A stretch of 64,000 nt of DNA from Trypanosoma brucei (lineage: Eukaryota): assembly GCA_000002445.1 (NCBI GenBank), contig CM000208.1, forward strand, positions 3,744,001 through 3,808,000, read 5' to 3'. A program made the translations under genes and the position numbers. Below are positions 9,041 to 45,500 of this stretch, one piece after another (the first letter of the stretch is position 1; every line of letters begins with the position of its first letter). Below the pieces are notes generated by a model. It was given only the letters and a program-made list of their open reading frames with translations, had not been told where the DNA came from and did not search any database.

Positions 9041-9658
9041 TTGAATTCTTCTATCAATCAAACGACTATGTATGGTGTTGAGTGTTTTCGGCCACTTGGC
9101 CTCGCCGCCTTTATGTTGGCAGTCCTTTCGGTCGTGCGGGTCGCAACATCAGAAGATGACCCAAACAAACTGACGCCGCAGGAGCGCATAGATAGATACC
9201 GCAAACGAGTTGCGCGGTCGTTCCTCCTTAAGATGGCTGAAGAACCCGGTGCCATGACGCTCCCCTCAGGCGTCGTTGTTCACGTGCTCAACCGCGGCGG
9301 TGGTGGACGGTCGGCTGCTGTTGATGATGAATGCACCGTTCACTACACAGGAACACTGAAGGATGGAACTGTGTTTGACAGCTCACGAGATCGCGGACAG
9401 CCCTTCAAACTTAAGCTGGGCCAAGTGATTGTTGGTTGGCAGGAGGTCCTCCAACTGATGCGACCCGGCGACCGCTGGAAAGTTTTCATCCCACCTGAAC
9501 ACGGCTACGGTGCGAGAGGTGCAGGCCCAAAGATCCCACCCCACTCCGCACTGGTGTTTGACATGGAGTTGATTTCCATTGAAGGCGGCGGCAACGGTCG
9601 CACTGAAAAGGAGGTGGAGGAAGTTCTCAAGGGTTACGCGGGGAAGGGAGACTTGTAA
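9041..9658 (+). CDS. MIP: Secreted FKBP-type peptidyl-prolyl cis-trans isomerase, macrophage infectivity potentiator (MIP)-like
   Basis: N-terminal hydrophobic signal-like segment (LGLAAFMLAVLSVVRVATS) followed by a canonical FKBP domain: VHYTGTLKDGTVFDSSRDRGQPFKLKLGQVIVGWQEVLQLMRPGDRWKVFIPPEHGYGARGAGPKIPPHSALVFDMELISI. Confidence 0.85.
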   Translation: MNSSINQTTMYGVECFRPLGLAAFMLAVLSVVRVATSEDDPNKLTPQERIDRYRKRVARSFLLKMAEEPGAMTLPSGVVVHVLNRGGGGRSAAVDDECTVHYTGTLKDGTVFDSSRDRGQPFKLKLGQVIVGWQEVLQLMRPGDRWKVFIPPEHGYGARGAGPKIPPHSALVFDMELISIEGGGNGRTEKEVEEVLKGYAGKGDL

Positions 9659-10232: not shown

Positions 10233-11234
10233 ATGAACAATGGCGATAATTCCTCCGTAGGAAGCATCAGCGCTCCACCGCGGCAGAGACACAAGTTTGG
10301 CACCCGCACAGCTGAAGGTATCGCAGCACCCGTAGCGGCGGGGGGGATAATAACACGTGGAGGGAATTTTCAGAAGCCAACTCCCTCAAGTGACGACTCC
10401 GCGGCCTCAACAGAAGATTTATCTCTGCTCTTGTGGTGTAGCGTCGGGGTTTTCTTGTTGCTGTACGTGATCAGTGGGCGGTTTCACAACCTCTATATAA
10501 CTCCGGAGGATAATGATAAGGCGGAACAAAATTTCCTCCAATATTTGTCTGAGCGTTGGTCTCGCGAAGGTGATGCAATCATCACAAAGGCGTCAAATGA
10601 TGCCAGTTTTACGCAGCACGGTGATGGACGTATTTATTTCCGCGTAATGAATCAAACCTTTCCTATTAAGGAGTCCACGCCGCCACGCGTTGTGTCAAAA
10701 GTATCTCTTCCGGAAGTAAGCAGTGACAACCGGTGGCGCGGTGATTTGAAAAATGCCACAAGTGAGGCAGCCATGGAGTGGCGTAACCTGACTCAGACGA
10801 TGCAATGCGCTGGAATCGATGGGCCACTCATTTTTCACCTTGTCGCGTTTCTTTCGAGTGGCGTGCGCTTTGTGAGTACATATGTTCCACCAGGGAAGCC
10901 TGAGATACGGTCAGTGGGAGCCCACATTCCATGTCTGAATGCCATTCTGCCATTGATGTGCAAAGGTGACAAATGGGAAATTATCTGCCCTCCTGAGATG
11001 GCATTCGGATCCCACGGATTTCAGGAGGTGCCCCCATCTGCGACAACAATCTGGCAGGTTTTCATGTTGGATGTGACTAAAAGCGGGCCACGCACGCGGG
11101 CACACGTGCAAAAGCTCCTCGCGGCAGCGACACGACGTCATTCCGGCGAGGCGCCGATTACTCGAAGGGAATTGTACGAAAGGGCAATGCGAGCCCGTGG
11201 GAAACTGTTGGGTAACGGTGAAGGCACACTGTAA
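10233..11234 (+). CDS. FKBP-like protein with a predicted transmembrane segment and a divergent, probably non-catalytic FKBP domain. It is a tandem paralog of the upstream MIP gene
   Basis: Its C-terminal region aligns to the neighbouring FKBP domain: GDKWEIICPPEMAFGSHGF matches GDRWKVFIPPEHGYGARGA, and PPSATTIWQVFMLDV matches PPHSALVFDMELISI. There is a hydrophobic stretch LSLLLWCSVGVFLLLYVISG near residue 70. Poly-T tract at 10171-10201 immediately upstream. Confidence 0.6.
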   Translation: MNNGDNSSVGSISAPPRQRHKFGTRTAEGIAAPVAAGGIITRGGNFQKPTPSSDDSAASTEDLSLLLWCSVGVFLLLYVISGRFHNLYITPEDNDKAEQNFLQYLSERWSREGDAIITKASNDASFTQHGDGRIYFRVMNQTFPIKESTPPRVVSKVSLPEVSSDNRWRGDLKNATSEAAMEWRNLTQTMQCAGIDGPLIFHLVAFLSSGVRFVSTYVPPGKPEIRSVGAHIPCLNAILPLMCKGDKWEIICPPEMAFGSHGFQEVPPSATTIWQVFMLDVTKSGPRTRAHVQKLLAAATRRHSGEAPITRRELYERAMRARGKLLGNGEGTL

Positions 11235-15780: not shown

Positions 15781-16401
15781 AGTTTGAGTGGTTTGTTGAT
15801 TGGGGGGGGGTTGGGAAGGAAGGTGGGATGGAAGAAAAGAGAAGTTGAGAAGCTGAAAAGATGGTAAAACACCAAAATGGCGCTTCGGAGGCCCTCACTG
15901 TCGAGTGGTTGTTTTTTTTTTGTCTTTTGTTTGGGGGGGCGGGAGGGTTTTCCTCTCCCCTTTTCTTGTCTCTCTTGCATAAACGTGGAGACACGGATTT
16001 TTTTTTTAAAAAAAGAGAGAAAACGGAAAAGAAATGTGGGTGCACTCAATATAGAAAAGGAAGTGAGAGTACATATGAAGCCAACTTTTGTACGTATGCT
16101 TACGGAGACATAAGGAATGTATATAATTTCATTACCTTGCGTCGTCTTTGTTGCCATACGCTATCTTTACGTGTGTGTTTGTGTGTGTGTGGGGGGGGGG
16201 GAAATGTGAGGAGTTTTTCTTTATTTTCTTTCTATTTCTTTTTATTTTTCTTTCTTTGCTTCATAGGGTTTTTTTTTCTTGCGGTTCGAGCACAATCTGT
16301 GGTTTTACCTCTGTTGTTGCTCCCATCCCTTTGTACCCCCTTCTTGCATTTCTTCTGTTTTTTTTTGTGTGTGTGTTTGAGTGTGAATGTGTTTGTTAGT
16401 G

Positions 16402-16403
<2 letters not shown>

Positions 16404-16439
<36 letters not shown>

Positions 16440-16458
16440 TTATTATTATTATTATTTT
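16404..16458. repeat. Compound microsatellite (TA)16(TTA)7
   Basis: Direct reading. Confidence 0.95.
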
Positions 16459-17258
16459 CTTCTCCCCTCCCCCCTTTTCCACTTTTGTCTATCCCTAATC
16501 TTTATTATTACTATTATTGTTGTTGTTGTTACTGTTATTGTTAATGTTACAGGTGTGGCTTTTCCCCACTGCTCTTTTGTTTTGTCTTCAGTTGGGGCAG
16601 ATGGTCGATTTTCAGTCATTAGTTTTGCTTCTATCGTTTCTTCTTCAATGATCAAGAAGATCTTTTTTTCTTAACAAAAAGAAAAGGAAAAAAAGAAAAG
16701 AAAACAAGAAACTACAGATCTTGTCCACTCGAATTGTGTGACAAGGGCCAATCTGTATTTTTTTTTTTTCATGTGAGTGACTCACTCGTTTGACCGTTTT
16801 CTTGTGTTGTTCAATTTTGTCGTTTTGTTCAGGGGTTATCAAATTATCTCCATCGTGCATTCACTTGAATCACACGGATAGCTTCTGAAACAATATAAAG
16901 CCGAAACGAAATTTTCTCTTCCCTCCATTTTGCTTTTTCCTCGCAGCCAATCACGCAATTTATTTACTTTTTTGCACTGCGCTTTCTTTCTTTCTTTTTT
17001 TCTTACTTTTTGCTCCCTCCCTTTTTTCTTCTCCTCTTGTAGTGGTCGCGCTTCATTGTTGTTGTTTTTTTTTTTGTGTGTGTGTGTGTTTTTTCTCATT
17101 TTCGCTTTCAGTAAGTTCATTTTCCTCCCCCCCCTTCCCTCCTTCAGTAACACACCACTACACACTCACCCATTCATGATTACCATTCTTAATTATTGTG
17201 GTTGCCATCATTGCTGTTGTTGGTGAGTTTTATTCCTTTTCATGTGCGTGGAGGAGCC

Positions 17259-17280
17259 GTGTGTGTGTGTGTGTGTGTGT
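17259..17280. repeat. (TG)11 microsatellite
   Basis: Direct reading. Another (TG)n-like run lies at about 17389-17401. Confidence 0.9.
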
Positions 17281-18036
17281 AGCAGTTTCAAATGAGTCAC
17301 AAAATAAAATACTTTTTTTTAAAAAAAAGTAAAGGTACCAAATGAAAGTGCCGTTTATGAGGGGGAGGGGAAACAAGAAGGAAGAAGAGGTGTGTGTGTG
17401 TGGGGGGGGAGAAAGTTTGTTATTATTTAATTCTACCATTTCTTTTTGGTGCTTTTCCTTATGTTCCCTGTTTTGTTTTATCACTGACCCATCTTGCGTT
17501 TCATCAACAACACACTTTACGTGTACGAACAAACCCCCACCATACACCCCAAAAAACAAAAGGGGAACCAATCCAGATGTATACATGTTGAAGGAAGAAC
17601 ACCATACACTCATACACATATATAAAATATATAAATGAATATAAGTATATTATTTTTTTTTAATTTTTCTTTGAAATATGTTTTGTCTACCCAAGTACTC
17701 GTTACAAAAATGTAGACTCCCTTTCACTGTTCTCCTCAACATTTTTTTTCGACAGTTGTTATCAATATTCGGCTTCATTTGTATCTTCTCTTTCTGTGCA
17801 CTTGTACATACGCATCTCCGTTTACATCTTACTTTCCTTCTCCTTTCCTTCGCTTCAGGAAAAAGGCTGTGGAACAAGTGAAGTAAAGAGGAGGAGGAGG
17901 AGGAGAAAACCTTCAACGGAATACGAACTTTATTCTGTTTTGTTTTTCATTTATTCCGTTTCCTTTTTTTTTTCTTTAAACGAAAAGTAACAGGAGGGAG
18001 GGAAGGAGGGGAAACGCATCGTGAGTACCAAACCAA

Positions 18037-21054: not shown

Positions 21055-22821
21055 ATGTTTGTTACCTCGCAACTAACACATATGCGGAGGCTCTCGGTAT
21101 CGTTCCTACCGTTTCACCTGATCGTCACTACTCAGCGTCGCCAATTTGGTGGAAACTCGAAGGATGGGCACAAGGGGGAGGACAAACCGATAGAACGCGT
21201 AGGAGGAGTGCCACCCACAGGTCCCCATCCGTTTAACATCACTAGTGGAGCAGAAGGACAAATCTCCAACCAGCAGCGCAAGGCCCACGATGCCATAACT
21301 CAACTTTTCCGCGACGACGCGCAGCGAAAGGCACTATATCAGAAGCCTGGTAGGACCATTGGGGCCCAAACTACAACTGCCGCCATCTCGACGCCGCCGA
21401 ATGAAGATGAATTTGAGGGTCTGCAGCCCATTTCAGGTGATGCGGAGCCGTCGTCCATCACTGCAGTGGAGGCTGTGGAGCAAGAGTTGTTAGACGATGC
21501 TTTTTTGTATTTTCCACCCGCACAGCAGTCCGCGAGTGGCAGTGTCGCTACCACTGCTACTAACGAACTGTACGTACCGGGACAGCAAATCATTCCTCCC
21601 GGATTAACGCGCTACCGAGTGGATGTGCAATACCAGGGAAATGATTTTGATGGATGGTGGAAGAGCACGACACGCCAGCTTTTCAGACGTGAGGTCGGTT
21701 TAGATGGCTCAATCACGCGGGTGCCGGTGGCGGAGCCAGGAACCATCGGAAACGCTGCTGGGGTCTCTCGAGGGGAGACGATGGGTAGCAGATATCATGC
21801 GCGAACAGTGTTGGAGGAAGCACTTGCCGTGGCGCTCGATGTGAATACGGTCCGTGTTGTGGCCGGTGTCATACCTGAGGTTGGGGTGTCTGTGCGACGT
21901 CTCTGCTGTCACGTCGATGTACCCAGTCACATTGAGCTGCAGCCACGAACAGTGATTCAGCGGGCCACTATGTGGATGGAAAAACGCCAACAACCCCTAG
22001 CCATTTTGAGTTATCGTCGATGCAAGAACCAAGACTTTCACGCACGCCACAGTGGCTTGAGGCGTGTCTATGTTTACCGCATTCTGAATCGTGTCGCACC
22101 GCCCTTATTCGACGCTGGGCTCCAGTGGCATGTAGATCGCCACCTCGATGTGGACCGGATGAAGCGATTTGCTAAAACCCTTGAGGGCACAAAGGACTTC
22201 GGTTACTTTGCTGACCCCAAGATGGCAAATGCGCTGCGGCGGGCAGCCATGAGCCCTGGTGGTTTTTCTACAGGGGCAGTAACGGAAGAAAACTTCCAAC
22301 CAAAAGCTACAGGGGAATCGCACCGAGTGACGCGCGGCAAAGCGCCGAAGGTGACGATGGAAAAAGGCCCCAGTAACCTTGATCGAGCCGCAGCGCTTCC
22401 AACTTTTAACGAGTACGGCCAGCGAGTTGTGCAGCCAGGTGCTCATGGAAAAGAATATTACCGTGTTGCAACCAATCTACCGACGGTACGGACAGTCGAC
22501 AGGCTTGATGTGGTGCGGCAGGATGATGAGGTGCTTATTTGGTTTGTAGGCCGCTCTTTCCTCCGTCATCAAATTCGAAATATGGTAAGTGTGCTGAAGG
22601 CAGCTGGACACGGTCTGTGGAATGATCTGGAACTCCAGCAGGCCCTGCAAAGCGGCTTTGAGCCGTCACGGCATCGGTTCAAGCGGGAGCGCTTCCCAAC
22701 AGCACCGGCGTATGGCTTGACATTGTGGGATGTGGAGTACCCGGATCAGCACCGAGACGATTACGTGCAATTTGTCGATTCTGGACCATATGAACAAGTG
22801 AACATCGCCCGTGACATATAA
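21055..22821 (+). CDS. TruA-family tRNA pseudouridine synthase (PUS1-like) with a roughly 180-aa N-terminal extension
   Basis: Four TruA motifs are present. RYRVDVQYQGNDFDGWWKST corresponds to [27 protein letters not shown] corresponds to RRYRYII. FVGRSFLRHQIRNMVSVLKAAG corresponds to AFVHHMVRNIVGSLMEVG. YGLTLWDVEYPD corresponds to EGLYLVAVDYPD. Confidence 0.75.
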   Translation: MFVTSQLTHMRRLSVSFLPFHLIVTTQRRQFGGNSKDGHKGEDKPIERVGGVPPTGPHPFNITSGAEGQISNQQRKAHDAITQLFRDDAQRKALYQKPGRTIGAQTTTAAISTPPNEDEFEGLQPISGDAEPSSITAVEAVEQELLDDAFLYFPPAQQSASGSVATTATNELYVPGQQIIPPGLTRYRVDVQYQGNDFDGWWKSTTRQLFRREVGLDGSITRVPVAEPGTIGNAAGVSRGETMGSRYHARTVLEEALAVALDVNTVRVVAGVIPEVGVSVRRLCCHVDVPSHIELQPRTVIQRATMWMEKRQQPLAILSYRRCKNQDFHARHSGLRRVYVYRILNRVAPPLFDAGLQWHVDRHLDVDRMKRFAKTLEGTKDFGYFADPKMANALRRAAMSPGGFSTGAVTEENFQPKATGESHRVTRGKAPKVTMEKGPSNLDRAAALPTFNEYGQRVVQPGAHGKEYYRVATNLPTVRTVDRLDVVRQDDEVLIWFVGRSFLRHQIRNMVSVLKAAGHGLWNDLELQQALQSGFEPSRHRFKRERFPTAPAYGLTLWDVEYPDQHRDDYVQFVDSGPYEQVNIARDI

Positions 22822-30452: not shown

Positions 30453-33400
30453 GTGGCGGTAATGCTTTTCCTGGAACCTGAAGTTGATTATTTCAGGATG
30501 CAGCTGCATCATCTGGCGATTCCTACCAGCATATGCATACCCAGCGTCCCAAAAACCTCCCGCAATCCCGAAACAAGAGCAAATGGTGATCAAGAATGTG
30601 AAACTGGGGGCGAAAACGCCAAGGTGGACGGCACAGTCCCGTTTATCACACAGGAAGAACAAAACAAAGTTATACAACGTGCTCTCCGAGTGGCGCTCTA
30701 CCAGCGTTTTCCGTACGAAAGCTATGACACGCTAGAGAATGTGTATATTTTAGCTGTCACACATTTGGCTTTGCCGCTAATTGGTGACACGGGTTTGAGT
30801 TACGAGGACCTGGCAACTCTTGAAATTTGCGAGCATTCCCTTCCACCAGAGTTGAGGCATCGGACGTTCCCTTCACATCTTAACGCATTGATCGCACAAA
30901 GGAATCCCCCCGACAGTGGAAGTGTTATACAAGACAGAATGTTAGATCATAGCGCGACACAGGGCTCCTCGGAAGAGGGCACAGGGAAACAGCGCTTTAA
31001 CGACAGCTATTTTATTCTTATTCCTGATCTCACAGACGAGCAGGCGATGGTTTATTGTAAAGGAAGGCAGTATGCGGGCTCAATGCTGGGCAGTGGCAAG
31101 GCATCCGTTGGACCTGCGTCCGACGCTGCCCGTTTTTCCCGCAGCACCCTATGGGATGATGCACGGCATTCTCGTGCGAACGCCTTGGAAGGGCCCAGTG
31201 AAGATCTACTTTCCTTTCATGTGGTGGAGGGAGATATGATTCACTACGTGGAGACATCTCAGGGAGGTTTGAGCGAGCCAGCGCCACGTTCCTTGAGATT
31301 TGCCGCTTTCAAGGTGGCACTGAGTCAGTTTTCGTTTGAAGAACAGCAGTACTATACAAAGAAACGAGAGGAGGTACGCTCTCATGGTAGCACAACGACG
31401 CTCTGGGGATCGACACTACACTCCTCAGAGGCAAACGAAGTCCACATCAACAAAACAGTGCGGACCATTTTAGCTTCGGAAGTACCGGGGAGATGGCGTG
31501 CTGAAGAAGAGGAGGCAATGAAGAAGTTTTTTACCAAGTGTAACTCTGTTCTCAGGGCTTACTCAACCCCTTCCAGCCAGATGGATGATGCATCAAAGGG
31601 AGACGGCGGGGTGCTAGCCCCGAAACAGCCGGGGGCATCTGTCTCAGATGAACATAAAACAAGAAATGTGGCGGAATCTTTGGGGCAGACCGAAAGACTC
31701 TCTCATCTGTATGGGGTCCGCAGATTAGTTTATTCTTTCGCCGCGTGTGACTGTTACCATCTTGTTGCAGAGGATAACAACCCGCTTTACTACGCCAAGT
31801 CCAGCCGTGCTACATACAAGCCTCATACGGTAAATGTTACGCTGATCTCCGACCTAACTGTTTCGCCTCGGTTAACGCCCGCCTTCTCGGCATCGCCCCA
31901 ACGGTGCTTAGGAGCTCGAATCGGCACAACAAAGACTGTGGAAGGGCTCGTAGTATCGAACCAGCCTTCCCGTGCACAATCACCGGACATCAAACCATGC
32001 ACAGTGGGAGAGAAGTTTTCTGTAGGTTCCAAACGTCACAGCCAGTCCCCAGGAGTGTCTCCTCCGACGAGTGGCGCTCATGGAAGCGACTCGCATGCGC
32101 CGCTCCAGCGCTTACCGTCCAATACGGAGGGTTACCTCCGCCTTACAACTTCACTTGTGTGTAACAATGTCTCCGGTAACCTCAAACACAGGAAAGAGAA
32201 TCTACTGGAGAAGGGGCTTTCCTTCGGTCGGTTGAATCCGTGCCATGAGCAGGCCACGGAGGGCAATGTGAAATGTAGTAACGAGAAGGCTGTGTGTGCC
32301 GGCGATGTCGTCAACCTTTTTCGTTTACTAGCTACCTCATCCATTGCACAGCACCAACTCCGCCATAATGTTATACGTCCAGTTATTTCTGCTGCAGTTT
32401 TGGACAGTAGCGGCAATGCCGGAACCCGCGGAGCGCTGCACCGACATTATCAGCGGATAAAATGTCGTGCCTTATTGGATCACACATGGTACTCAATCCC
32501 TATCCAACCGGTTCCTTCGACGCAGGATGAGGTTCAGTGGATACCTATTGTGTTTGGGAGTGCAGAATGTATTAGTGATGTGGGTTATCGCACTGCAGTG
32601 CACATTGGCTTCTTTCCAAATGCGGAAGTCACTGATGACAGTGTGCGCGGCAACCCGTTGAGACCAAAAGGAACCGCATTCGCAACAGATGTGTCAAAGC
32701 AGTCTGCATCCCCGGGAACTGCCACGAGAAGTGCCATGATGCCGTTGGACACCAATCACGCGACGCTGCAAACAAGCTCTTCTGACGGAAGTAAGGGGTT
32801 ATGTTTCTCCGCACAACTGAAAACTGCAGTATCATCAAGCAACGAGGAAGTACCAGCTGGCGTGTCAGCAAGAAGGGGTGGTGTTGCCATGTCCTTCAAC
32901 ACAGGCAACGAGGAAGTACCAGCTGGCGTGTCAGCAAGAAGGGGTGGTGTTGCCATGTCCTTCAACAAAGGCAACGAGGAAGTGCCAGCTGGCGTGTCAG
33001 CAAGAAGAGGTGGTGTTGCCATGTCCTTCAACAAAGGCAACGAGGAAGTACCAGCTGGCGTGTCAGCAAGAAGGGGTGGTGTTGCCATGTCCTTCAACAA
33101 AGGCAACGAGGAAGTACCAGCTGGCGTGTCAGCAAGAAGGGGTGGTGTTGCCATGTCCTTCAACACAGGCAACGAGGAAGTACCAGCTGGCGTGTCAGCA
33201 AGAAGGGGTGGTGTTGCCATGTCCTTCAACACAGGCAACGAGGAAGTACCAGCTGGCGTGTCAGCAAGAAGGGGTGGTGTTGCCATGTCCTTCAACACAG
33301 GCAACGAGGAAGTACCAGCTGGCGTGTCAGCAAGAAGGGGTGGTGTTGCCATGTCCTTCAACACAGGCAACGAGGAAGTACCAGCTGGCGTGTCAGCAAG

Positions 33401-36400
33401 AAGGGGTGGTGTTGCCATGTCCTTCAACACAGGCAACGAGGAAGTACCAGCTGGCGTGTCAGCAAGAAGGGGTGGTGTTGCCATGTCCTTCAACACAGGC
33501 AACGAGGAAGTACCAGCTGGCGTGTCAGCAAGAAGGGGTGGTGTTGCCATGTCCTTCAACACAGGCAACGAGGAAGTACCAGCTGGCGTGTCAGCAAGAA
33601 GAGGTGGTGTTGCCATGTCCTTTGACACCGGCAATCTGACGGGGGTCGGAAGTGGGAATGTTGCTTGCTCTTCAGAACGAGAGATTGTCTTAAGGAGGAG
33701 TGCCATGGAAGGCGGTAGTGGTTGGGAGCAGCGTTGTTCGTCGGCGCTTTTCTCGCCAAGACCATATCGACCGACTTCTTTAAGAGTTTGGGAGCCGGGC
33801 GCTGACGATCAATCTAACTCCAATCGTTTTGAGCAAGGCACACGTGTGACATGTGCCGGGCCCCCGGCTGGCTTCTCTGCCACGTCAACTCCCTGGTGGC
33901 GATTGCCATCTCAAGGACCCAGGCGCGGGGATGGCGTTAACGCGGGGAGAGGTGAGTGTAGTACTGGTGGATTCTGTAACGATTGGCAACAATGTGACAC
34001 TTGTGGGGGCCGGTTTCCTCAGGGTAGTACTTCTAACCCGAGGTTTTGTGAGCACCTACAGTCACGACCAACAAGCGTGCTTAATACTTATGGAAAATTT
34101 TCCAGAAGTCACAGCCCCCATCCCTCCTACAACGCGATGCAACAGCGACAGACACAACATTACTCTACGATGGGCCGTGATGGACGTTTGCGGCCGCCAC
34201 ACACAGACCGCTGGGACAGCAATGATGTCAATGGTGACGTCTCGCCCAGGACCGCCACCGATCCGCTGAGAGGAACATTTTGGAAGTCGCCGACGCTCAA
34301 CCCTTCCAACCATCGAAACGGGGCAGATCCACTTCTTTCACCGTTATCGAGTCCGTCGTGCAGTGGCGTACTCACACCAAATGCAGGTCGGAGGCCGACG
34401 ATAGGTGAGTTCGCTGCAACCAACACCAGGTCCAGCGCATTCAATTGTCTAGCATCGTTCAAACATCACGGCGCCGCAACGGAAACTGGTAACCGCACGG
34501 CTAGTGGTCTCGAAAATAACTACCATGGACCTTCCTTTTGTAAGAACAGGGCAGGTGTGCCGACTAAACGGTCCGTCGTCCCCACCTTTGGCAGAATGGA
34601 TACTTTGTACGATAACAGTGCATCCGGCATACCCATTTATAACGAGTACGGCTACCCGCAAGGCGATTCTCGGGTGCGACCGAGGGGTATGCAGGTAATG
34701 GATATGATGTACGACCGCCAGTGGCAGCGGACGCAACCCCCGGCTCGCCTGCCGGTTGGTGCAGGACCCACTAATCGAGGTTCGCTAAGTACTTCATGGA
34801 CTAATACAACAAAAAATGGTGTTTGCGGCATGAGAAGGGCATGTTTGCCCGGAAAGCCACCACTCGCATCCACAAGACCAAACGGAGCTTCGAACACACT
34901 GAACAACGGCATTGCCCCCACGGCAGTTCGGCGCTTAACACTCCGCGAGCGAATACAACTCCAGCGGAGGCTTCAGCAACGAGAAGCAAACATAAGTGCC
35001 TTTGAGACGAATATAAAGGAAAACTATTGTGTGGGAAATGATGTAAAACGGTTTCGGACGGACGTTGGTGACCTTAGTTCCGCGAATAAAACAACTGCCA
35101 GCAATGGGGGGGAGAGAACGACAACGGAAACGAACTCGGCATGTGGTGCACGTACGGCTGCAGCATTGGCAGCAGTGACATTTGGGGGCGACCCTCCATC
35201 AAAAGGTTCCCTTCACTCCATTGGAAAGGATATTATGCGCTTGAAATCCCTTACGTCCCCATTCGCGGAGGCAGACGGGGTTAATGTGTCCTTTTGCCTA
35301 AGGGATTTAACCAATGCTTTTCTACGTATGCCTCAAAGTGAAATAAAGGAGTATGACCTCTCTAAAGCTGCGTGGTTGGAGGATGGGGTCTCGTGTTTCG
35401 TGTCCGCCAAGCCTACAAAATTTAATGGTGAGTTTGAAAACTATGTTAGGCACTTCAACTTTCACCAGCATCCGTTTTATTTGAGGGAAAGGGCCTTTTT
35501 ATTTGTTCTGCGAGTCCCCACTCAGCCGCAACTCCGTCTCATTATCGCCGTTCACAACATGCATGATTTTCTCTCAGTACTACGACAGCGGCCACTGCGA
35601 CCGCTAGAATCTTGGAGAGGACCGCATTCAATGGAAGAAGAAATGGGTGGTCTCAGTGGAAGGGAAAATGCCTCGCAACTTCCAGCTGATGAATGTAATT
35701 CAGGTCGGACCCGCACTTTCCTGCAGCGGCTGTGTAAATTCATGAAGAATTGTATTTCGGGGGGAAATGGCGGCGGCACCCAGCAAATGGGGTGGGCACC
35801 CATAACGTGGGGTCAGCGACTGGCTCTTCTGCGGATACAAGCGTCGGCGGCAGTACACGGCCAGGCATGGAGCGAATGCACAACTCCGTTACTCACAGAC
35901 CCGGTTGTACTCTACTCACGCATGTCATTTCTGTCGAACCGCACCGCCTCGTTCGCAGTGCTGCGCTGTCAGCTGGACACCCTCAAAGCGTTTGCCTCCA
36001 CTTGGATAAAGAGTAAAAGAACAACGGCGGACGAAAACCAGGTGCGGATGATACAAAACCGTATCAGTAAGGTAGAAAGTATACAATTGGGATGTGATGC
36101 CCCTACTGCTGGAATTGGTGAGCCCAAAACTTCTTCAAGCGGGGTACAGGCAGCTGGTCGTGTTCAGCAGCGGTTGAGATCTCTACCCCTCCGTAAAAGA
36201 ATGGGGGCTCCTTTCGCGTGGAAAAAGGCTGATACAACTTCGAATTCCGTGGAAAAAAAAGGAGAGACGCAGAGGCAGCCTCAGTTGAAATCAACGATTT
36301 CTTCGTATTCTTCATCAGCAAGTTTGTGCCGCTCTAAACCAGAAGTGGGAGGTGCTAATTCCTCAACGCCACCTGGTGGCGTTCCAGCCTCTGATGCCGC

Positions 36401-37661
36401 AGGAGCTGCAACTCCACTTGCGGACGCTGACGGCACTCTGATTCGGATTGCAGAGAGACTCACGTCATCCACCGATATAGTGAGCGGAAACAATCATTTC
36501 CCCCCAATGCGAACCATTTTGAAGCTAGTAACATTGTGGGAGCAAAATGCTCAGCGACAGAGGGCATTTAATGACTGTCCTGCAGAGCCCGCGCCTTACT
36601 CCTACGGAGGATCAGATACGGTGCTGGCTAGCAACCTCGGAGCCCGCGCAGAGTTGCGGGACCACCAGGACGATTATGATATTAGCGTCTCCCACATTCA
36701 GCAACTGCTGCAGTGGCAGTGGGAATACCACCAGAACAGCTATGAGGCATTGTCTTTACCTGTATTCCGTGGAGCGCTTGTGGCAAGCAGGGGCTGCCGC
36801 TATGGGAGCGATGCATGCAGTAGTGTGGATCCCAAGGTAATGGGTGTGAATCCCCTTTCCCGGTCACTGTTGCTCGCTCTGGTTAAGTGGGGGTGGCTAG
36901 TACCGATAGACTACAAAGCGTTGCACAAACGGGCCGTGCGTCACACTGCCGTCGGCGACAACATGCTATCACGCGTTCAATTTGGCTTCGGCGTGAGGCG
37001 TCGCACACTATTTGTGGGGGTGCTGGGGTTCACATGTTACCGCGGATGGGCCCTGAGTCTTCTTATTTTGTATGCTGCGTATCGCTGCTTCAAGTTGGCT
37101 GCAGTTGGTCTACTCAGTACCGGCGCACCGTGGCCCGCGCCTTTGCACTCGGGAACTTCTATCGTGTACAGTCGCTCGGAGGCAGCAGTGGAGGCTATGC
37201 TCGAAGAGCGGCAACACTTTCTCTCGCAGTTGCTTGCCACTCGCGTACTGCAAACTCAGCACTACGTTCACAACTTTGCAAGTCGTCTGGACATGCTTCT
37301 GCGGGGATACTCACCGATCCTTTCACTTATCATTGGTATCGAACTACTGTTTGTGTGGATTTTTTTTGCGTGTTGGAGCGGCGCCGCACGCGTTTCCGCT
37401 ACCTTCGGGGTCAATATAGACCTCCTCCATCAATATATGTCGGAGCTCATCTCTCCCTTACCGCTGTACGACAACGTCATGTGGTGCCTTACCTACATGA
37501 AGCCAAATGTGGCAGGCGTGGAGACCTTTTCTCTCGTTGCCCCTCTGTTTGTCGTCCTTTGTTTGATGACCCAGTCACCACTGCGATGGGTGCTGTACAA
37601 AACATGGGAAATGTTTTTGCATGATGACGCGCTCGTCCGACGTCCGGTGCTCTCTTTCTGA
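30453..37661 (+). CDS. Very large hypothetical protein (2402 aa) with about 14 tandem 19-aa repeats (GNEEVPAGVSARRGGVAMSFNT) and a C-terminal multi-pass hydrophobic region
   Basis: 7.2-kb uninterrupted ORF with an internal 57-bp tandem array at 32841-33633. C-terminal predicted TM helices include ILSLIIGIELLFVWIFFACW and FSLVAPLFVVLCLMTQ. Long polypyrimidine tract upstream at 30066-30178. Confidence 0.65.
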   Translation: MAVMLFLEPEVDYFRMQLHHLAIPTSICIPSVPKTSRNPETRANGDQECETGGENAKVDGTVPFITQEEQNKVIQRALRVALYQRFPYESYDTLENVYILAVTHLALPLIGDTGLSYEDLATLEICEHSLPPELRHRTFPSHLNALIAQRNPPDSGSVIQDRMLDHSATQGSSEEGTGKQRFNDSYFILIPDLTDEQAMVYCKGRQYAGSMLGSGKASVGPASDAARFSRSTLWDDARHSRANALEGPSEDLLSFHVVEGDMIHYVETSQGGLSEPAPRSLRFAAFKVALSQFSFEEQQYYTKKREEVRSHGSTTTLWGSTLHSSEANEVHINKTVRTILASEVPGRWRAEEEEAMKKFFTKCNSVLRAYSTPSSQMDDASKGDGGVLAPKQPGASVSDEHKTRNVAESLGQTERLSHLYGVRRLVYSFAACDCYHLVAEDNNPLYYAKSSRATYKPHTVNVTLISDLTVSPRLTPAFSASPQRCLGARIGTTKTVEGLVVSNQPSRAQSPDIKPCTVGEKFSVGSKRHSQSPGVSPPTSGAHGSDSHAPLQRLPSNTEGYLRLTTSLVCNNVSGNLKHRKENLLEKGLSFGRLNPCHEQATEGNVKCSNEKAVCAGDVVNLFRLLATSSIAQHQLRHNVIRPVISAAVLDSSGNAGTRGALHRHYQRIKCRALLDHTWYSIPIQPVPSTQDEVQWIPIVFGSAECISDVGYRTAVHIGFFPNAEVTDDSVRGNPLRPKGTAFATDVSKQSASPGTATRSAMMPLDTNHATLQTSSSDGSKGLCFSAQLKTAVSSSNEEVPAGVSARRGGVAMSFNTGNEEVPAGVSARRGGVAMSFNKGNEEVPAGVSARRGGVAMSFNKGNEEVPAGVSARRGGVAMSFNKGNEEVPAGVSARRGGVAMSFNTGNEEVPAGVSARRGGVAMSFNTGNEEVPAGVSARRGGVAMSFNTGNEEVPAGVSARRGGVAMSFNTGNEEVPAGVSARRGGVAMSFNTGNEEVPAGVSARRGGVAMSFNTGNEEVPAGVSARRGGVAMSFNTGNEEVPAGVSARRGGVAMSFDTGNLTGVGSGNVACSSEREIVLRRSAMEGGSGWEQRCSSALFSPRPYRPTSLRVWEPGADDQSNSNRFEQGTRVTCAGPPAGFSATSTPWWRLPSQGPRRGDGVNAGRGECSTGGFCNDWQQCDTCGGRFPQGSTSNPRFCEHLQSRPTSVLNTYGKFSRSHSPHPSYNAMQQRQTQHYSTMGRDGRLRPPHTDRWDSNDVNGDVSPRTATDPLRGTFWKSPTLNPSNHRNGADPLLSPLSSPSCSGVLTPNAGRRPTIGEFAATNTRSSAFNCLASFKHHGAATETGNRTASGLENNYHGPSFCKNRAGVPTKRSVVPTFGRMDTLYDNSASGIPIYNEYGYPQGDSRVRPRGMQVMDMMYDRQWQRTQPPARLPVGAGPTNRGSLSTSWTNTTKNGVCGMRRACLPGKPPLASTRPNGASNTLNNGIAPTAVRRLTLRERIQLQRRLQQREANISAFETNIKENYCVGNDVKRFRTDVGDLSSANKTTASNGGERTTTETNSACGARTAAALAAVTFGGDPPSKGSLHSIGKDIMRLKSLTSPFAEADGVNVSFCLRDLTNAFLRMPQSEIKEYDLSKAAWLEDGVSCFVSAKPTKFNGEFENYVRHFNFHQHPFYLRERAFLFVLRVPTQPQLRLIIAVHNMHDFLSVLRQRPLRPLESWRGPHSMEEEMGGLSGRENASQLPADECNSGRTRTFLQRLCKFMKNCISGGNGGGTQQMGWAPITWGQRLALLRIQASAAVHGQAWSECTTPLLTDPVVLYSRMSFLSNRTASFAVLRCQLDTLKAFASTWIKSKRTTADENQVRMIQNRISKVESIQLGCDAPTAGIGEPKTSSSGVQAAGRVQQRLRSLPLRKRMGAPFAWKKADTTSNSVEKKGETQRQPQLKSTISSYSSSASLCRSKPEVGGANSSTPPGGVPASDAAGAATPLADADGTLIRIAERLTSSTDIVSGNNHFPPMRTILKLVTLWEQNAQRQRAFNDCPAEPAPYSYGGSDTVLASNLGARAELRDHQDDYDISVSHIQQLLQWQWEYHQNSYEALSLPVFRGALVASRGCRYGSDACSSVDPKVMGVNPLSRSLLLALVKWGWLVPIDYKALHKRAVRHTAVGDNMLSRVQFGFGVRRRTLFVGVLGFTCYRGWALSLLILYAAYRCFKLAAVGLLSTGAPWPAPLHSGTSIVYSRSEAAVEAMLEERQHFLSQLLATRVLQTQHYVHNFASRLDMLLRGYSPILSLIIGIELLFVWIFFACWSGAARVSATFGVNIDLLHQYMSELISPLPLYDNVMWCLTYMKPNVAGVETFSLVAPLFVVLCLMTQSPLRWVLYKTWEMFLHDDALVRRPVLSF
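32841..33633 (+). repeat. 57-bp coding tandem repeat, about 14 copies, inside the 30453-37661 gene
   Basis: Exact periodicity of 57 bp. Copies 2-4 carry an aca-to-aaa (T-to-K) variant. The last copy is degenerate (FDTGNLTG). The array is open in all three sense frames and on the antisense strand. Confidence 0.95.
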
Positions 37662-39511: not shown

Positions 39512-42500
39512 ATGGCTGACTCAATTGATTACGAAAACGATTTCGAAGAAATAGTACTCTGCGATGTAACTCCAGCAGAAACACAATCAACAACAAACTC
39601 TGAGCAGTCACCGGGGCCTGAAAAAAAAGAAAACGAAGAAACACCATGTACACCAACAAAAATAAAAAAAGAATCAAACTCAACAACAATCTCAAACAAG
39701 AGCGGCACGACTCCAACAAAAGAATATATAAACAACAACACAAAACAATCAACGAATGCATCCCCTTTCTTGGAATCACAGACATCGGCTAGACTTACAT
39801 CTAATCACGAAGAGCTTTCGTCAGAAGCTAAACAACAGTTCCCTGTGGAGTCACCGAAGGAAGCAACTCCGCGTGTAGCCTCTCGTGCGTCTACGAAATC
39901 GTCGTCACCTCATGAGGATCCTTCACGTGCATCATCGAAGAAATCATCGGATGGTTCAATGCAACAAGATCTTCCGTGGTTGCAATCACAGACATCGGCT
40001 AGACCTACATCCAATCACGAAGAGCTTTCGTCAGAAGCTAAACAACAGTTCCCTGTGGAGTCACCGAAGGAAGCAACTCCGCGTGTAGCCTCTCGTGCGT
40101 CTACGAAATCGTCGTCACCTCATGAGGATCCTTCACGTGCATCATCGAAGAAATCATCGGATGGTTCAATGCAACAAGATCTTCCGTGGTTGCAATCACA
40201 GACATCGGCTAGACCTACATCCAATCACGAAGAGCTTTCGTCAGAAGCTAAACAACAGTTCCCTGTGGAGTCACCGAAGGAAGCAACTCCGCATGTAGCC
40301 TCTCGTGCGTCTACGAAATCGTCGTCACCTCATGAGGATCCTTCACGTGCATCATCGAAGAAATCATCGGATGGTTCAATGCAACAAGATCTTCCGTGGT
40401 TGCAATCACAGACATCGGCTAGACCTACATCCAATCACGAAGAGCTTTCGTCAGAAGCTAAACAACAGTTCCCTGTGGAGTCACCGAAGGAAGCAACTCC
40501 GCATGTAGCCTCTCGTGCGTCTACGAAATCGTCGTCACCTCATGAGGATCCTTCACGTGCATCATCGAAGAAATCATCGGATGGTTCAATGCAACAAGAT
40601 CTTCCGTGGTTGCAATCACAGACATCGGCTAGACCTACATCCAATCACGAAGAGCTTTCGTCAGAAGCTAAACAACAGTTCCCTGTGGAGTCACCGAAGG
40701 AAGCAACTCCGCATGTAGCCTCTCGTGCGTCTACGAAATCGTCGTCACCTCATGAGGATCCTTCACGTGCATCATCGAAGAAATCATCGGATGGTTCAAT
40801 GCAACAAGATCTTCCGTGGTTGCAATCACAGACATCGGCTAGACCTACATCCAATCACGAAGAGCTTTCGTCAGAAGCTAAACAACAGTTCCCTGTGGAG
40901 TCACCGAAGGAAGCAACTCCGCGTGTAGCCTCTCGTGCGTCTACGAAATCGTCGTCACCTCATGAGGATCCTTCACGTGCATCATCGAAGAAATCATCGG
41001 ATGGTTCAATGCAACAAGATCTTCCGTGGTTGCAATCACAGACATCGGCTAGACCTACATCTAATCACGAAGAGCTTTCGTCAGAAGCTAAACAACAGTT
41101 CCCTGTGGAGTCACCGAAGGAAGCAACTCCGCGTGTAGCCTCTCGTGCGTCTACGAAATCGTCGTCACCTCATGAGGATCCTTCACGTGCATCATCGAAG
41201 AAATCATCGGATGGTTCAATGCAACAAGATCTTCCGTGGTTGCAATCACAGACATCGGCTAGACCTACATCCAATCACGAAGAGCTTTCGTCAGAAGCTA
41301 AACAACAGTTCCCTGTGGAGTCACCGAAGGAAGCAACTCCGCATGTAGCCTCTCGTGCGTCTACGAAATCGTCGTCACCTCATGAGGGTCCTTCACGTGC
41401 ATCATCGAAGAAATCATCGGATGGTTCAATGCAACAAGATCTTCCGTGGTTGCAATCACAGACATCGGCTAGACCTACATCCAATCACGAAGAGCTTTCG
41501 TCAGAAGCTAAACAACAGTTCCCTGTGGAGTCACCGAAGGAAGCAACTCCGCATGTAGCCTCTCGTGCGTCTACGAAATCGTCGTCACCTCATGAGGATC
41601 CTTCACGTGCATCATCGAAGAAATCATCGGATGGTTCAATGCAACAAGATCTTCCGTGGTTGCAATCACAGACATCGGCTAGACCTACATCCAATCACGA
41701 AGAGCTTTCGTCAGAAGCTAAACAACAGTTCCCTGTGGAGTCACCGAAGGAAGCAACTCCGCATGTAGCCTCTCGTGCGTCTACGAAATCGTCGTCACCT
41801 CATGAGGATCCTTCACGTGCATCATCGAAGAAATCATCGGATGGTTCAATGCAACAAGATCTTCCGTGGTTGCAATCACAGACATCGGCTAGACCTACAT
41901 CCAATCACGAAGAGCTTTCGTCAGAAGCTAAACAACAGTTCCCTGTGGAGTCACCGAAGGAAGCAACTCCGCGTGTAGCCTCTCGTGCGTCTACGAAATC
42001 GTCGTCACCTCATGAGGATCCTTCACGTGCATCATCGAAGAAATCATCCGATGGTTCAATGCAACAAGATCTTCCGTGGTTGCAATCACAGACATCGGCT
42101 AGACCTACATCTAATCACGAAGAGCTTTCGTCAGAAGCTAAACAACAGTTCCCTGTGGAGTCACCGAAGGAAGCAACTCCGCATGTAGCCTCTCGTGCGT
42201 CTACGAAATCGTCGTCACCTCATGAGGATCCTTCACGTGCATCATCGAAGAAATCATCCGATGGTTCAATGCAACAAGATCTTCCGTGGTTGCAATCACA
42301 GACATCGGCTAGACCTACATCCAATCACGAAGAGCTTTCGTCAGAAGCTAAACAACAGTTCCCTGTGGAGTCACCGAAGGAAGCAACTCCGCATGTAGCC
42401 TCTCGTGCGTCTACGAAATCGTCGTCACCTCATGAGGATCCTTCACGTGCATCATCGAAGAAATCATCGGATGGTTCAATGCAACAAGATCTTCCGTGGT

Positions 42501-45500
42501 TGCAATCACAGACATCGGCTAGACCTACATCCAATCACGAAGAGCTTTCGTCAGAAGCTAAACAACAGTTCCCTGTGGAGTCACCGAAGGAAGCAACTCC
42601 GCATGTAGCCTCTCGTGCGTCTACGAAATCGTCGTCACCTCATGAGGATCCTTCACGTGCATCATCGAAGAAATCATCGGATGGTTCAATGCAACAAGAT
42701 CTTCCGTGGTTGCAATCACAGACATCGGCTAGACCTACATCCAATCACGAAGAGCTTTCGTCAGAAGCTAAACAACAGTTCCCTGTGGAGTCACCGAAGG
42801 AAGCAACTCCGCGTGTAGCCTCTCGTGCGTCTACGAAATCGTCGTCACCTCATGAGGATCCTTCACGTGCATCATCGAAGAAATCATCGGATGGTTCAAT
42901 GCAACAAGATCTTCCGTGGTTGCAATCACAGACATCGGCTAGACCTACATCCAATCACGAAGAGCTTTCGTCAGAAGCTAAACAACAGTTCCCTGTGGAG
43001 TCACCGAAGGAAGCAACTCCGCATGTAGCCTCTCGTGCGTCTACGAAATCGTCGTCACCTCATGAGGATCCTTCACGTGCATCATCGAAGAAATCATCGG
43101 ATGGTTCAATGCAACAAGATCTTCCGTGGTTGCAATCACAGACATCGGCTAGACCTACATCCAATCACGAAGAGCTTTCGTCAGAAGCTAAACAACAGTT
43201 CCCTGTGGAGTCACCGAAGGAAGCAACTCCGCATGTAGCCTCTCGTGCGTCTACGAAATCGTCGTCACCTCATGAGGATCCTTCACGTGCATCATCGAAG
43301 AAATCATCGGATGGTTCAATGCAACAAGATCTTCCGTGGTTGCAATCACAGACATCGGCTAGACCTACATCTAATCACGAAGAGCTTTCGTCAGAAGCTA
43401 AACAACAGTTCCCTGTGGAGTCACCGAAGGAAGCAACTCCGCGTGTAGCCTCTCGTGCGTCTACGAAATCGTCGTCACCTCATGAGGATCCTTCACGTGC
43501 ATCATCGAAGAAATCATCGGATGGTTCAATGCAACAAGATCTTCCGTGGTTGCAATCACAGACATCGGCTAGACCTACATCCAATCACGAAGAGCTTTCG
43601 TCAGAAGCTAAACAACAGTTCCCTGTGGAGTCACCGAAGGAAGCAACTCCGCGTGTAGCCTCTCGTGCGTCTACGAAATCGTCGTCACCTCATGAGGATC
43701 CTTCACGTGCATCATCGAAGAAATCATCGGATGGTTCAATGCAACAAGATCTTCCGTGGTTGCAATCACAGACATCGGCTAGACCTACATCTAATCACGA
43801 AGAGCTTTCGTCAGAAGCTAAACAACAGTTCCCTGTGGAGTCACCGAAGGAAGCAACTCCGCATGTAGCCTCTCGTGCGTCTACGAAATCGTCGTCACCT
43901 CATGAGGATCCTTCACGTGCATCATCGAAGAAATCATCGGATGGTTCAATGCAACAAGATCTTCCGTGGTTGCAATCACAGACATCGGCTAGACCTACAT
44001 CTAATCACGAAGAGCTTTCGTCAGAAGCTAAACAACAGTTCCCTGTGGAGTCACCGAAGGAAGCAACTCCGCGTGTAGCCTCTCGTGCGTCTACGAAATC
44101 GTCGTCACCTCATGAGGATCCTTCACGTGCATCATCGAAGAAATCATCGGATGGTTCAATGCAACAAGATCTTCCGTGGTTGCAATCACAGACATCGGCT
44201 AGACCTACATCTAATCACGAAGAGCTTTCGTCAGAAGCTAAACAACAGTTCCCTGTGGAGTCACCGAAGGAAGCAACTCCGCATGTAGCCTCTCGTGCGT
44301 CTACGAAATCGTCGTCACCTCATGAGGATCCTTCACGTGCATCATCGAAGAAATCATCGGATGGTTCAATGCAACAAGATCTTCCGTGGTTGCAATCACA
44401 GACATCGGCTAGACCTACATCCAATCACGAAGAGCTTTCGTCAGAAGCTAAACAACAGTTCCCTGTGGAGTCACCGAAGGAAGCAACTCCGCGTGTAGCC
44501 TCTCGTGCGTCTACGAAATCGTCGTCACCTCATGAGGATCCTTCACGTGCATCATCGAAGAAATCATCCGATGGTTCAATGCAACAAGATCTTCCGTGGT
44601 TGCAATCACAGACATCGGCTAGACCTACATCTAATCACGAAGAGCTTTCGTCAGAAGCTAAACAACAGTTCCCTGTGGAGTCACCGAAGGAAGCAACTCC
44701 GCATGTAGCCTCTCGTGCGTCTACGAAATCGTCGTCACCTCATGAGGATCCTTCACGTGCATCATCGAAGAAATCATCGGATGGTTCAATGCAACAAGAT
44801 CTTCCGTGGTTGCAATCACAGACATCGGCTAGACCTACATCCAATCACGAAGAGCTTTCGTCAGAAGCTAAACAACAGTTCCCTGTGGAGTCACCGAAGG
44901 AAGCAACTCCGCGTGTAGCCTCTCGTGCGTCTACGAAATCGTCGTCACCTCATGAGGATCCTTCACGTGCATCATCGAAGAAATCATCGGATGGTTCAAT
45001 GCAACAAGATCTTCCGTGGTTGCAATCACAGACATCGGCTAGACCTACATCTAATCACGAATTGCTTTCGTCAGAAGCTAAACAACAGTTCCCTGTGGAG
45101 TCACCGAAGGAAGCAACTCCGCATGTAGCCTCTCGTGCGTCTACGAAATCGTCGTCACCTCATGAGGATCCTTCTCGTGTTGTTTGTGATGTGACCTCGC
45201 AGGAACTCTTGGAGCATGTTGTCTTGAATGATATTGATGAATCTCCTCTTCATATTTCCTGTGCTGCCGGATTTCGCTCGTTCGATTTCGGATCTTCTGT
45301 ATCTGGGAGTAAGGTAAGTCCTGCGACTTTGAGGGATTATGCTGCACGGTGTCATATGGTACGAATAGAAAACAATCTGAGCAAGGAGGATATTCGTCTA
45401 GTTTCTCATTCAACCGCCAATGATAGGGAATCTAAAATGTTAAGCACCGGTGATAGCAGTGGTGTCCTACATTCATCGAAAGTTATGCTGGTCGAAGTGC

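Follow-up and report, generated by a model that had tools for sequence, protein, structure and literature searches.

mt-SAF11 of Trypanosoma brucei, a TruA-like protein with glutamate at the position of the catalytic aspartate

The window analysed here is a stretch of 64,000 nucleotides of Trypanosoma brucei DNA (assembly GCA_000002445.1, contig CM000208.1, positions 3,744,001 to 3,808,000), and the gene of interest is a complete and intact open reading frame on the forward strand, at positions 21055–22821 of the window, that encodes 588 amino acid residues followed by a stop codon. Its product, a tRNA pseudouridine synthase A-like protein, is mt-SAF11, which belongs to the assemblosome of the T. 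brucei mitochondrial small ribosomal subunit (mt-SSU); it has already been characterised, and structures of it are in the PDB. It shares 100% identity over 588 residues with chain FB of 9HNY and about 99% identity with the chain FB labelled 'mt-SAF11' in 6SGA and 6SGB; the 6SGA chain departs from the window protein by three substitutions (G42E, V228A and T375A) and by its start at M10. Each of the three entries contains two mt-SAF11 chains (FB and FC), and nothing of substance distinguishes these from the ORF product. The M10 codon, at 21082–21084, is an alternative start that is used in T. brucei TREU927 and in 6SGA (579 residues), and M1 is used in 9HNY and in Trypanosoma equiperdum. The T. 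equiperdum protein SCU72113.1 matches the window protein exactly, and TREU927 XP_828035.1 (UniProt Q387U9) shares a 90% cluster with it; we note that a T. equiperdum OVI contig is 99.63% identical to the window at the DNA level. Two upstream ORFs of 704 residues were tested as duplicates and are unrelated. We also sought functional linkage with the neighbouring genes and found none; they share a polycistronic unit but are housekeeping genes with no relation to mt-SAF11.

The first-pass annotation, made from the sequence by eye, had assigned this ORF to the TruA family and had proposed a profile alignment, a comparison of kinetoplastid orthologs and a structural comparison with E. coli TruA as checks. 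The family assignment is borne out by a match to PF01416 (Pfam PseudoU_synth_1; 55.3 bits with the cut-off at 23.3, E = 1e-14), by an hhalign probability of 98.2% over 239 columns of E. coli TruA, and by structural similarity. This Pfam model matches the protein in its C-terminal half only, at the C-terminal TruA repeat (residues 475–563, positions 22477–22743). Scores are low against TIGR00071, the TruA equivalog model (47.6, far under the cut-off of 142.85), and against NF000622 (32.9, cut-off 308). The AlphaFold2 model has a confident core, with the two tandem alpha/beta PseudoU_synth_1 repeats of the TruA fold, and a Foldseek search with it gives target-normalised TM scores of about 0.78–0.83 to 1DJ0, 2NQP, 2NRE and 1VS3. 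The matches are ordered with chains FB and FC of the mt-SAF11 entries at the top, followed by TruA (TM about 0.8) and then by PUS1 and PUS3. The fold is thus shared with the bacterial tRNA pseudouridine 38–40 synthases, as in E. coli (1DJ0, 2NQP) and Thermus thermophilus (1VS3).

The segment in which the catalytic loop was expected, VVAGVIPEVGVSVRRLCCHVDV, is present in the ORF, and positions 21865–21891 translate to GVIPEVGVS (residues 271–279), which aligns with the catalytic loop of E. coli TruA in a degenerate form. The register was established with four alignments: phmmer against T. thermophilus TruA (1VS3), a hmmsearch of PDB sequences with a profile of 35 orthologs, an hhalign comparison with E. 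coli TruA, and a MAFFT alignment that included 49 full-length canonical TruA sequences. All four pair Glu275 (codon GAG, 21877–21879) with Asp60, the catalytic residue of E. coli TruA, and Pro274 with Thr59, and none has an aspartate in the catalytic column; the 'Pro/Glu' that had been read at this site by eye therefore resolves to glutamate at the aspartate position. Ile273 stands for Arg58 and Ser279 for His64; the Gly, Arg and Thr that flank the aspartate in the GRTD motif are likewise lost, the corresponding residues being V-I/L-P-E in mt-SAF11. Two nearby segments had been named as sources of an aspartate that could occupy the catalytic position, and neither supplies one: the HVD of HVDVP (residues 286–288) aligns with H71-F-E73 of E. 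coli TruA, so that D288 lies downstream of the loop, and GETMGSRYHARTV falls within a clade-specific insertion of about 45 residues (203–248). An alternative register with an aspartate in this column was rejected by phmmer, hmmsearch, hhalign and MAFFT.

The replacement is fixed throughout the orthologous clade. Glutamate occupies the Asp60 column in about 45 orthologs, all of them kinetoplastid where the source names the organism, and no clade member whose sequence includes the loop departs from this; E275 and G277 are invariant among the 35 orthologs of the profile. Canonical TruA proteins have aspartate in this column in 49 of 49 full-length sequences and glutamate in none. The Arg58 column contains L, I, V, T, M or P across the clade, with arginine in one member only. 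Deep-branching members read xTETGVH, more closely [IL][LT]ETGVH, which is a clear intermediate bridging to the RTDAGVH of TruA. A lone 'D' in the clade column is an alignment artefact, because the fragment in question begins to match the profile at position 290 and the loop is absent from it. In an exhaustive search the clade separates from canonical TruA by score, with full-length members at about 340 bits or more and clade fragments at 153 bits or above, while no canonical TruA exceeds 147 bits. The window protein carries the signature of the clade, namely glutamate in the D60 column, the ELLDDxFxYFP motif and the insertion in the C-terminal domain, and the ORF is conserved from prokinetoplastids to trypanosomes. 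We note that the change from Asp to Glu is conservative and a single nucleotide away (GAG as opposed to GAY), yet the glutamate is strictly invariant.

Most of the remaining active-site shell is retained. Of the 57 positions at which TruA is highly conserved, mt-SAF11 keeps the residue at 40, including the FHAR motif and the counterparts of Tyr118 and Tyr120 (Tyr339 and Tyr341), Arg205 (Arg508), Arg110 (Arg331) and His71 (His286). The two tyrosines lie in the motif RRVYVYRILNR (residues 336–346, positions 22060–22092), in which R337 and Y341 are invariant and Y339 is at least 90% conserved among the 35 orthologs. Arg508 lies in SFLRHQIRNMVS (residues 501–512, positions 22555–22590), where the same set shows no variation at R504 and at least 90% conservation at R508; the equivalent of Arg508, R205, is the conserved active-site arginine of TruA (PMC3973310). 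The Gln residues of the TruA GWQRQ motif are gone. This counts against a pure scaffold, which has no obvious need of so many kept positions, and the former active-site pocket probably still does something.

Lineage-specific additions surround this core. A TruA domain beginning at about R186/Y187 in both the hhalign and MAFFT alignments leaves an N-terminal extension of about 183 residues (1–183, positions 21055–21603) that is absent from canonical TruA, close to the roughly 180 residues first estimated. The extension had been thought a targeting or low-complexity region, and this stands in part. Its composition is presequence-like at the start (residues 1–36, positions 21055–21162), with five basic residues and no acidic one before D37, and it contains low-complexity stretches; membership in a mitoribosomal assemblosome suggests that mt-SAF11 is imported into the mitochondrion, and its presequence may be cleaved. 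Most of the extension is of low confidence in the AlphaFold2 model (pLDDT <50 for residues 1–66 and 95–175), with one predicted helix at residues 66–95. However, it also contains the conserved motif QELLDDAFLYFP (residues 143–154, positions 21481–21516), within which ELLDDAFLYFP is nearly invariant and conservation among the 35 orthologs reaches at least 90% at L145, D147, D148, Y152 and P154. Some of the extension is also ordered in 9HNY, where the model of chain FB was carried further at its N-terminal end (PMC11785013). Two clade-specific insertions, each seen as a gap in the hhalign alignment, lie within the TruA domain. The first (about residues 203–248, positions 21661–21798) separates the GW motif from helix 1 of the N-terminal TruA domain, and its pLDDT is <50 for 204–207 and 230–244 only. 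The second, of about 85 residues (about 388–475, positions 22216–22479), is in the C-terminal domain opposite residues 165–175 or so of E. coli TruA, with pLDDT <50 for 401–474 and a conserved AALPTFNEYGQ segment in the ortholog consensus. The extension and the insertions may provide contacts to lineage-specific neighbours.

Published cryo-EM structures of the mt-SSU assemblosome (6SGA, 6SGB and 9HNY) give these features a context. The immature h44 of 9S rRNA is reported to be stabilised by mt-SAF11, 14, 18, 22 and 24, and to rearrange when mt-SAF11 and others dissociate (PMC8784144); the suggestion in the first-pass annotation of an RNA-binding paralog agrees well with this. The RNA partner thus differs from that of TruA, being h44 of a pre-ribosome as opposed to a tRNA anticodon stem-loop; TruA is a homodimer (PMC3983220), and two copies of mt-SAF11 are present per particle. 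Every known pseudouridine synthase has the aspartate of position 60, and TruA, TruB, RluA and RsuA all lose their activity when it is mutated. The TruA, RluA and RsuA families also share the arginine that corresponds to R58, and Met or Lys in its place inactivates RluA (PMC3919597; PMC7822408). The description of the protein as catalytically dead stands as regards the replaced aspartate and the lost GRTD motif; the inactivity itself is deduced from the sequence together with mutagenesis data on other enzymes of this kind, on which grounds mt-SAF11 most likely no longer makes pseudouridine. The literature accessible to us yielded only structural mentions, and neither an enzymatic assay of mt-SAF11 nor a pseudouridine map of it or of 9S rRNA.

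We consider it very probable that mt-SAF11 is a non-catalytic descendant of TruA that serves as an rRNA-holding scaffold in assembly, and the TIGR00071 score far under its cut-off speaks for this too. A bacterial-type TruA would have been the ancestor; its two-lobed fold has been kept, as has the greater part of the shell that lines the active site and binds RNA, while the GRTDxGVH loop was altered (Asp to Glu, Arg to Ile or Leu, Thr to Pro) and the extension and two insertions were gained. The nuclear-encoded protein would enter the mitochondrion and help to build the kinetoplastid mt-SSU, with two copies in the early assemblosome that, jointly with mt-SAF14 (Mettl15), mt-SAF18 (RbfA), mt-SAF22 and mt-SAF24, keep h44 of the 9S rRNA immature. 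Their departure before the middle and late intermediates would then allow this decoding-centre helix to fold.

That the aspartate is only apparently lost, through misalignment, a sequencing error or a decaying pseudogene, is refuted by the results here and we give it next to no credence. The N-terminal half has no Pfam match, so a by-eye alignment in that half could err, but the four alignment methods concur, the xTETGVH intermediates make the homology plain, the identical protein sequence has been modelled in cryo-EM structures, and the intact ORF has been conserved from prokinetoplastids to trypanosomes. A true replacement could still leave an enzyme, with Glu275 used to modify a uridine of 9S rRNA within the assemblosome, e.g. 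in or near h44. Glutamate keeps a carboxylate and is invariant in the clade along with G277, Y339/Y341 and R508, which are partners of the catalytic aspartate in TruA, and mt-SAF11 contacts rRNA (PMC8784144). We nevertheless judge this improbable, as only one clade member has an arginine at the base-flipping Arg58 position, glutamate is found in 0 of the 49 canonical TruA proteins compared, and the glutamate side chain is one carbon longer and would shift the carboxylate relative to C1' and C6 of the target uridine. The TruA D60E variant (Huang et al. 1998) is said to bind tRNA yet to be inactive, which also counts against an active enzyme. Substitution of the equivalent arginine inactivates RluA (PMC3919597), and according to PMC7822408 no residue other than this aspartate is absolutely conserved across the pseudouridine synthases. 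Were Glu275 and the Tyr/Arg pocket catalytic, mt-SAF11 would be the first natural pseudouridine synthase to rely on glutamate where aspartate is otherwise universal, and 9S rRNA would acquire from it, in the course of assembly, a pseudouridine that is so far unmapped.

The pocket could instead be functional but non-catalytic, with Glu275, Tyr339/341 and Arg508 binding a flipped-out or unpaired nucleotide of the immature 9S rRNA, such that the former active site is a clamp that prevents h44 from folding early. This we regard as a tentative possibility, and not the leading one. Retention of the shell is selective, with a strictly invariant glutamate but without the residues that serve catalysis and flipping in particular, and human Pus1 without its catalytic aspartate has tenfold lower affinity for RNA, so that this position contributes to binding (PMC3983220). 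On the other hand, the Arg58 wedge for keeping a base flipped out is missing, and the conservation could instead reflect the stability of the fold, for example through a salt bridge between Glu275 and Arg508.

The non-catalytic scaffold has precedent, by analogy, in other pseudouridine synthase homologues of mitoribosome assembly, namely mt-LAF4, mt-LAF3 and human RPUSD3. The present analysis adds little to mt-SAF11 itself, whose fold, position in the assemblosome and contact with rRNA are already published and, like the protein, in the PDB. A modest addition is that the change from Asp to Glu and the loss of the flipping arginine define the whole mt-SAF11 clade, from prokinetoplastid-like members to trypanosomes, against a background of 40 of 57 TruA positions kept, most active-site residues among them; we found no comparative statement on this clade-wide replacement in the accessible literature. 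mt-SAF11 is thereby a tidy example of an RNA-modifying enzyme turned assembly chaperone. mt-LAF4, a tRNA pseudouridine synthase homologue with a non-conserved active site, has likewise become a non-catalytic placeholder while the kinetoplastid mitoribosome is built, but it acts on the mt-LSU, is reported to be without rRNA contact, and holds the place of central-protuberance proteins (PMC7703582). mt-LAF3 and human RPUSD3 and RPUSD4 are mitochondrial members of the pseudouridine synthase family with an essential role in mitoribosome and RNA biogenesis that does not require catalysis; the D211A mutant of mt-LAF3 is fully functional, and human RPUSD3 has glycine at the aspartate position (bioRxiv 10.1101/2023.02.23.529727). 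Unlike mt-SAF11, these belong to the RluA and not the TruA family, and mt-LAF3 keeps the aspartate and has lost the arginine.

The 588-amino acid open reading frame at 21055–22821 on the plus strand is uninterrupted, includes the segment quoted in the first-pass annotation, and encodes a protein matching PDB chain 9HNY_FB ("tRNA pseudouridine synthase A-like protein") with 100% identity across 588 aa and 6SGA/6SGB_FB, designated mt-SAF11, with approximately 99% identity. These PDB entries are of the T. brucei mitochondrial small-subunit assemblosome, and each contains two mt-SAF11 chains, FB and FC. The T. equiperdum protein SCU72113.1 has exactly the same sequence, a T. equiperdum OVI contig is 99.63% identical to the window DNA over 7.8 kb, and the encoded protein falls into one 90% cluster with T. 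brucei TREU927 XP_828035.1 (Q387U9) and a T. b. gambiense protein. Because the gene encodes a known protein with solved structures, the finding itself is an already known one.

The homology of mt-SAF11 to TruA is genuine, but is uneven along the protein. Pfam PseudoU_synth_1 matches well (E = 1e-14, 55.3 bits versus a cut-off of 23.3), but only at residues 475–563, leaving the catalytic loop outside the match, and TIGR00071, the NCBIfam equivalog model for TruA, reaches 47.6 versus a cut-off of 142.85. The catalytic N-terminal half is thus too diverged for stock profiles, and the by-eye alignment on which loss of the catalytic aspartate had been proposed therefore needed checking. An AlphaFold2 model, computed with the ortholog alignment as input, recovers the TruA fold with a confident core and low confidence at residues 1–66, 95–175, and 401–474; Foldseek places the mt-SAF11 chains closest to this model, followed by bacterial TruA (target-normalised TM of about 0.8), and then human PUS1 and PUS3.

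The catalytic loop is encoded at 21865–21891 (ggt gtc ata cct gag gtt ggg gtg tct, translated as GVIPEVGVS), and all four independent alignments put E275 in the catalytic Asp column. A phmmer alignment with Thermus thermophilus TruA (1VS3) sets VAGVIPEVGVS opposite an 11-residue TruA loop segment; a 35-ortholog profile searched against the PDB sets avipEtGvs opposite AGRTDAGVH of 1VS3; hhalign of the ortholog alignment against E. coli TruA (sequence from NC_000913; 98.2% probability, 239 columns) sets RVVAGVIPEVGVS opposite a 13-residue TruA segment; and MAFFT, run with the closest canonical TruA proteins, yields columns identical to the other three. Relative to E. coli TruA, the replaced residues are D60 (E275), R58 (I273), T59 (P274), G57 (V272), and H64 (S279), and those retained are Y118 and Y120 (Y339 and Y341), R205 (R508), R110 (R331), H71 (H286), and R176 (R479). 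The proposed replacement of the catalytic Asp thus holds, and neither of two nearby segments brings an Asp to this column: the HVD of HVDVP pairs with H71-F-E73, downstream of the loop, and GETMGSRYHARTV sits in a clade-specific insertion.

A word-indexed search identified 51 homologs, all of those with organism names being from kinetoplastids (Trypanosoma, Leishmania, Leptomonas, Angomonas, Strigomonas, and Bodo); a further member is the EukProt entry PhF_6. An exhaustive HMM search of 1.84 billion representatives returned 8263 proteins at E ≤ 1e-3, among which the mt-SAF11 clade is set apart by score, with full-length members scoring between about 340 and 761 bits and fragments as low as 153 bits; bacterial-type TruA proteins of about 250 aa follow at 147 bits or less. 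E275 and G277 are invariant in the aligned orthologs (35 of 35), and in a wider alignment every clade member containing the loop has Glu where all 49 full-length canonical TruA proteins have the Asp of GRTDxGVH. A lone Asp counted in the clade column belongs to P0065, a fragment lacking the loop. The loop reads VIPE[VT]GVS in trypanosomatids and [IL][LT]ETGVH in deeper branches (e.g. LTETGVH in the homolog P0051); the latter form plainly bridges the gap to RTDAGVH and so makes the homology between Glu275 and Asp60 secure. The Arg58 column contains Leu, Ile, Val, Thr, Met, or Pro in every clade member except P0062, a 368-aa homolog from a Logan assembly of a public sequencing run, whose VRCETGVH retains Arg together with Glu at the D60 position, and which may represent an early intermediate state. 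Canonical TruA has 57 positions conserved at 85% or more; the clade shares the majority residue at 40 of them, and most of the losses fall within the GRTD loop and GWQRQ motif. We note that the Bodo saltans homolog P0045 (373 aa; loop VIPEVGCS; 59% identity across 43% of the query) carries the source name 'glycosomal malate dehydrogenase, putative'; probably the annotation is wrong or the gene model truncated.

In the assemblosome, mt-SAF11, mt-SAF14, mt-SAF18, mt-SAF22, and mt-SAF24 stabilise immature h44 of the 9S rRNA, and dissociation of mt-SAF11, 14, 18, and 24 is accompanied by partial h44 rearrangement (Lenarcic et al. 2022, PMC8784144). In the 9HNY re-interpretation, the modelled N-terminal part of mt-SAF11 is longer, mt-SAF14 is recognised as Mettl15, and mt-SAF18 is recognised as RbfA (PMC11785013); we found no comment on the catalytic residues of mt-SAF11 in the accessible literature on it. 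All known pseudouridine synthases share Asp60, and TruA, TruB, RluA, and RsuA are inactive when it is mutated; the Arg two residues upstream stands in for the flipped-out base, with its replacement inactivating RluA (PMC3919597; PMC7822408). Because the equivalents of both Asp60 and Arg58 are changed, mt-SAF11 is, judging from its sequence, most likely a pseudoenzyme. The first-pass view of a catalytically dead TruA relative, perhaps binding RNA, was essentially right, with both residues replaced and a role at h44 published. The TruA RNA-binding body would be reused, in two copies, holding h44 immature until mt-SAF11 leaves. There are parallels within this system in mt-LAF4, a pseudouridine synthase homolog whose active site is not conserved and which serves as a placeholder (PMC7703582), in mt-LAF3, whose catalytic Asp is dispensable for function (D211A), and in human RPUSD3, which has Gly at the Asp position (both bioRxiv 10.1101/2023.02.23.529727).

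Simple decay is unable to account for the strict invariance of a Glu that is one nucleotide from Asp, or for the retention of Tyr339/341 and Arg508. We consider it possible, if somewhat doubtful, that an rRNA nucleotide is still bound, non-catalytically, in the former active-site pocket. That the invariant Glu makes mt-SAF11 a true catalyst is very improbable; Huang et al. (1998) reportedly found the TruA D60E mutant to be inactive.

The TruA domain starts near R186, and the N-terminal extension is therefore about 183 aa, in agreement with the approximately 180 aa estimated previously. Its proposed character as a targeting or low-complexity region is only part of the picture: residues 1–36, with five basic and no acidic residues, are presequence-like, as would fit a mitochondrial protein, but the extension also contains a helix predicted at 66–95 in the AlphaFold2 model and a motif nearly invariant among orthologs, ELLDDAFLYFP, at 143–154, and is partly ordered in 9HNY (PMC11785013). 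Translation could start at either M1 (21055) or M10 (21082), and public records disagree, with 588 aa from M1 in 9HNY, T. equiperdum, and T. b. gambiense, and 579 aa from M10 in TREU927 and 6SGA. Alignment with E. coli TruA by hhalign reveals two clade-specific insertions, at about 203–248 and 388–475, and we infer that these and the extension contact kinetoplastid-specific neighbours in the assemblosome.

In the window, every non-nested open reading frame of 200 aa or more is on the plus strand, and the neighbours are unrelated housekeeping genes (VPS53-like, two FKBPs, FYVE, WD40, DAG-kinase-like, a mitochondrial carrier, and PSD13/Rpn9-like), the usual arrangement in a trypanosomatid polycistronic unit; this context is uninformative on mt-SAF11 function. 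The adjacent plus-strand genes at 9041–9658 and 10233–11234 both have an FKBP_C domain, the second far more diverged (E = 4e-9 versus 3e-31), and 16001–18000, between the FYVE-domain and WD40 genes, is AT-rich intergenic DNA (GC 0.357 versus about 0.5 elsewhere). Two long plus-strand open reading frames have no Pfam match. That at 30453–37661 (2402 aa) contains 12.1 copies of a 66-bp unit at 32839–33634 (98% identity), and several nested open reading frames there, on both strands, are repeat by-products. That at 39512–49870 (3452 aa) contains two long in-frame tandem arrays, at 39770–45179 and 45651–47224 (210 bp × 25.8 copies, 99% identity, and 72 bp × 21.9 copies, 90%), in a region of negative GC skew and high AT skew.
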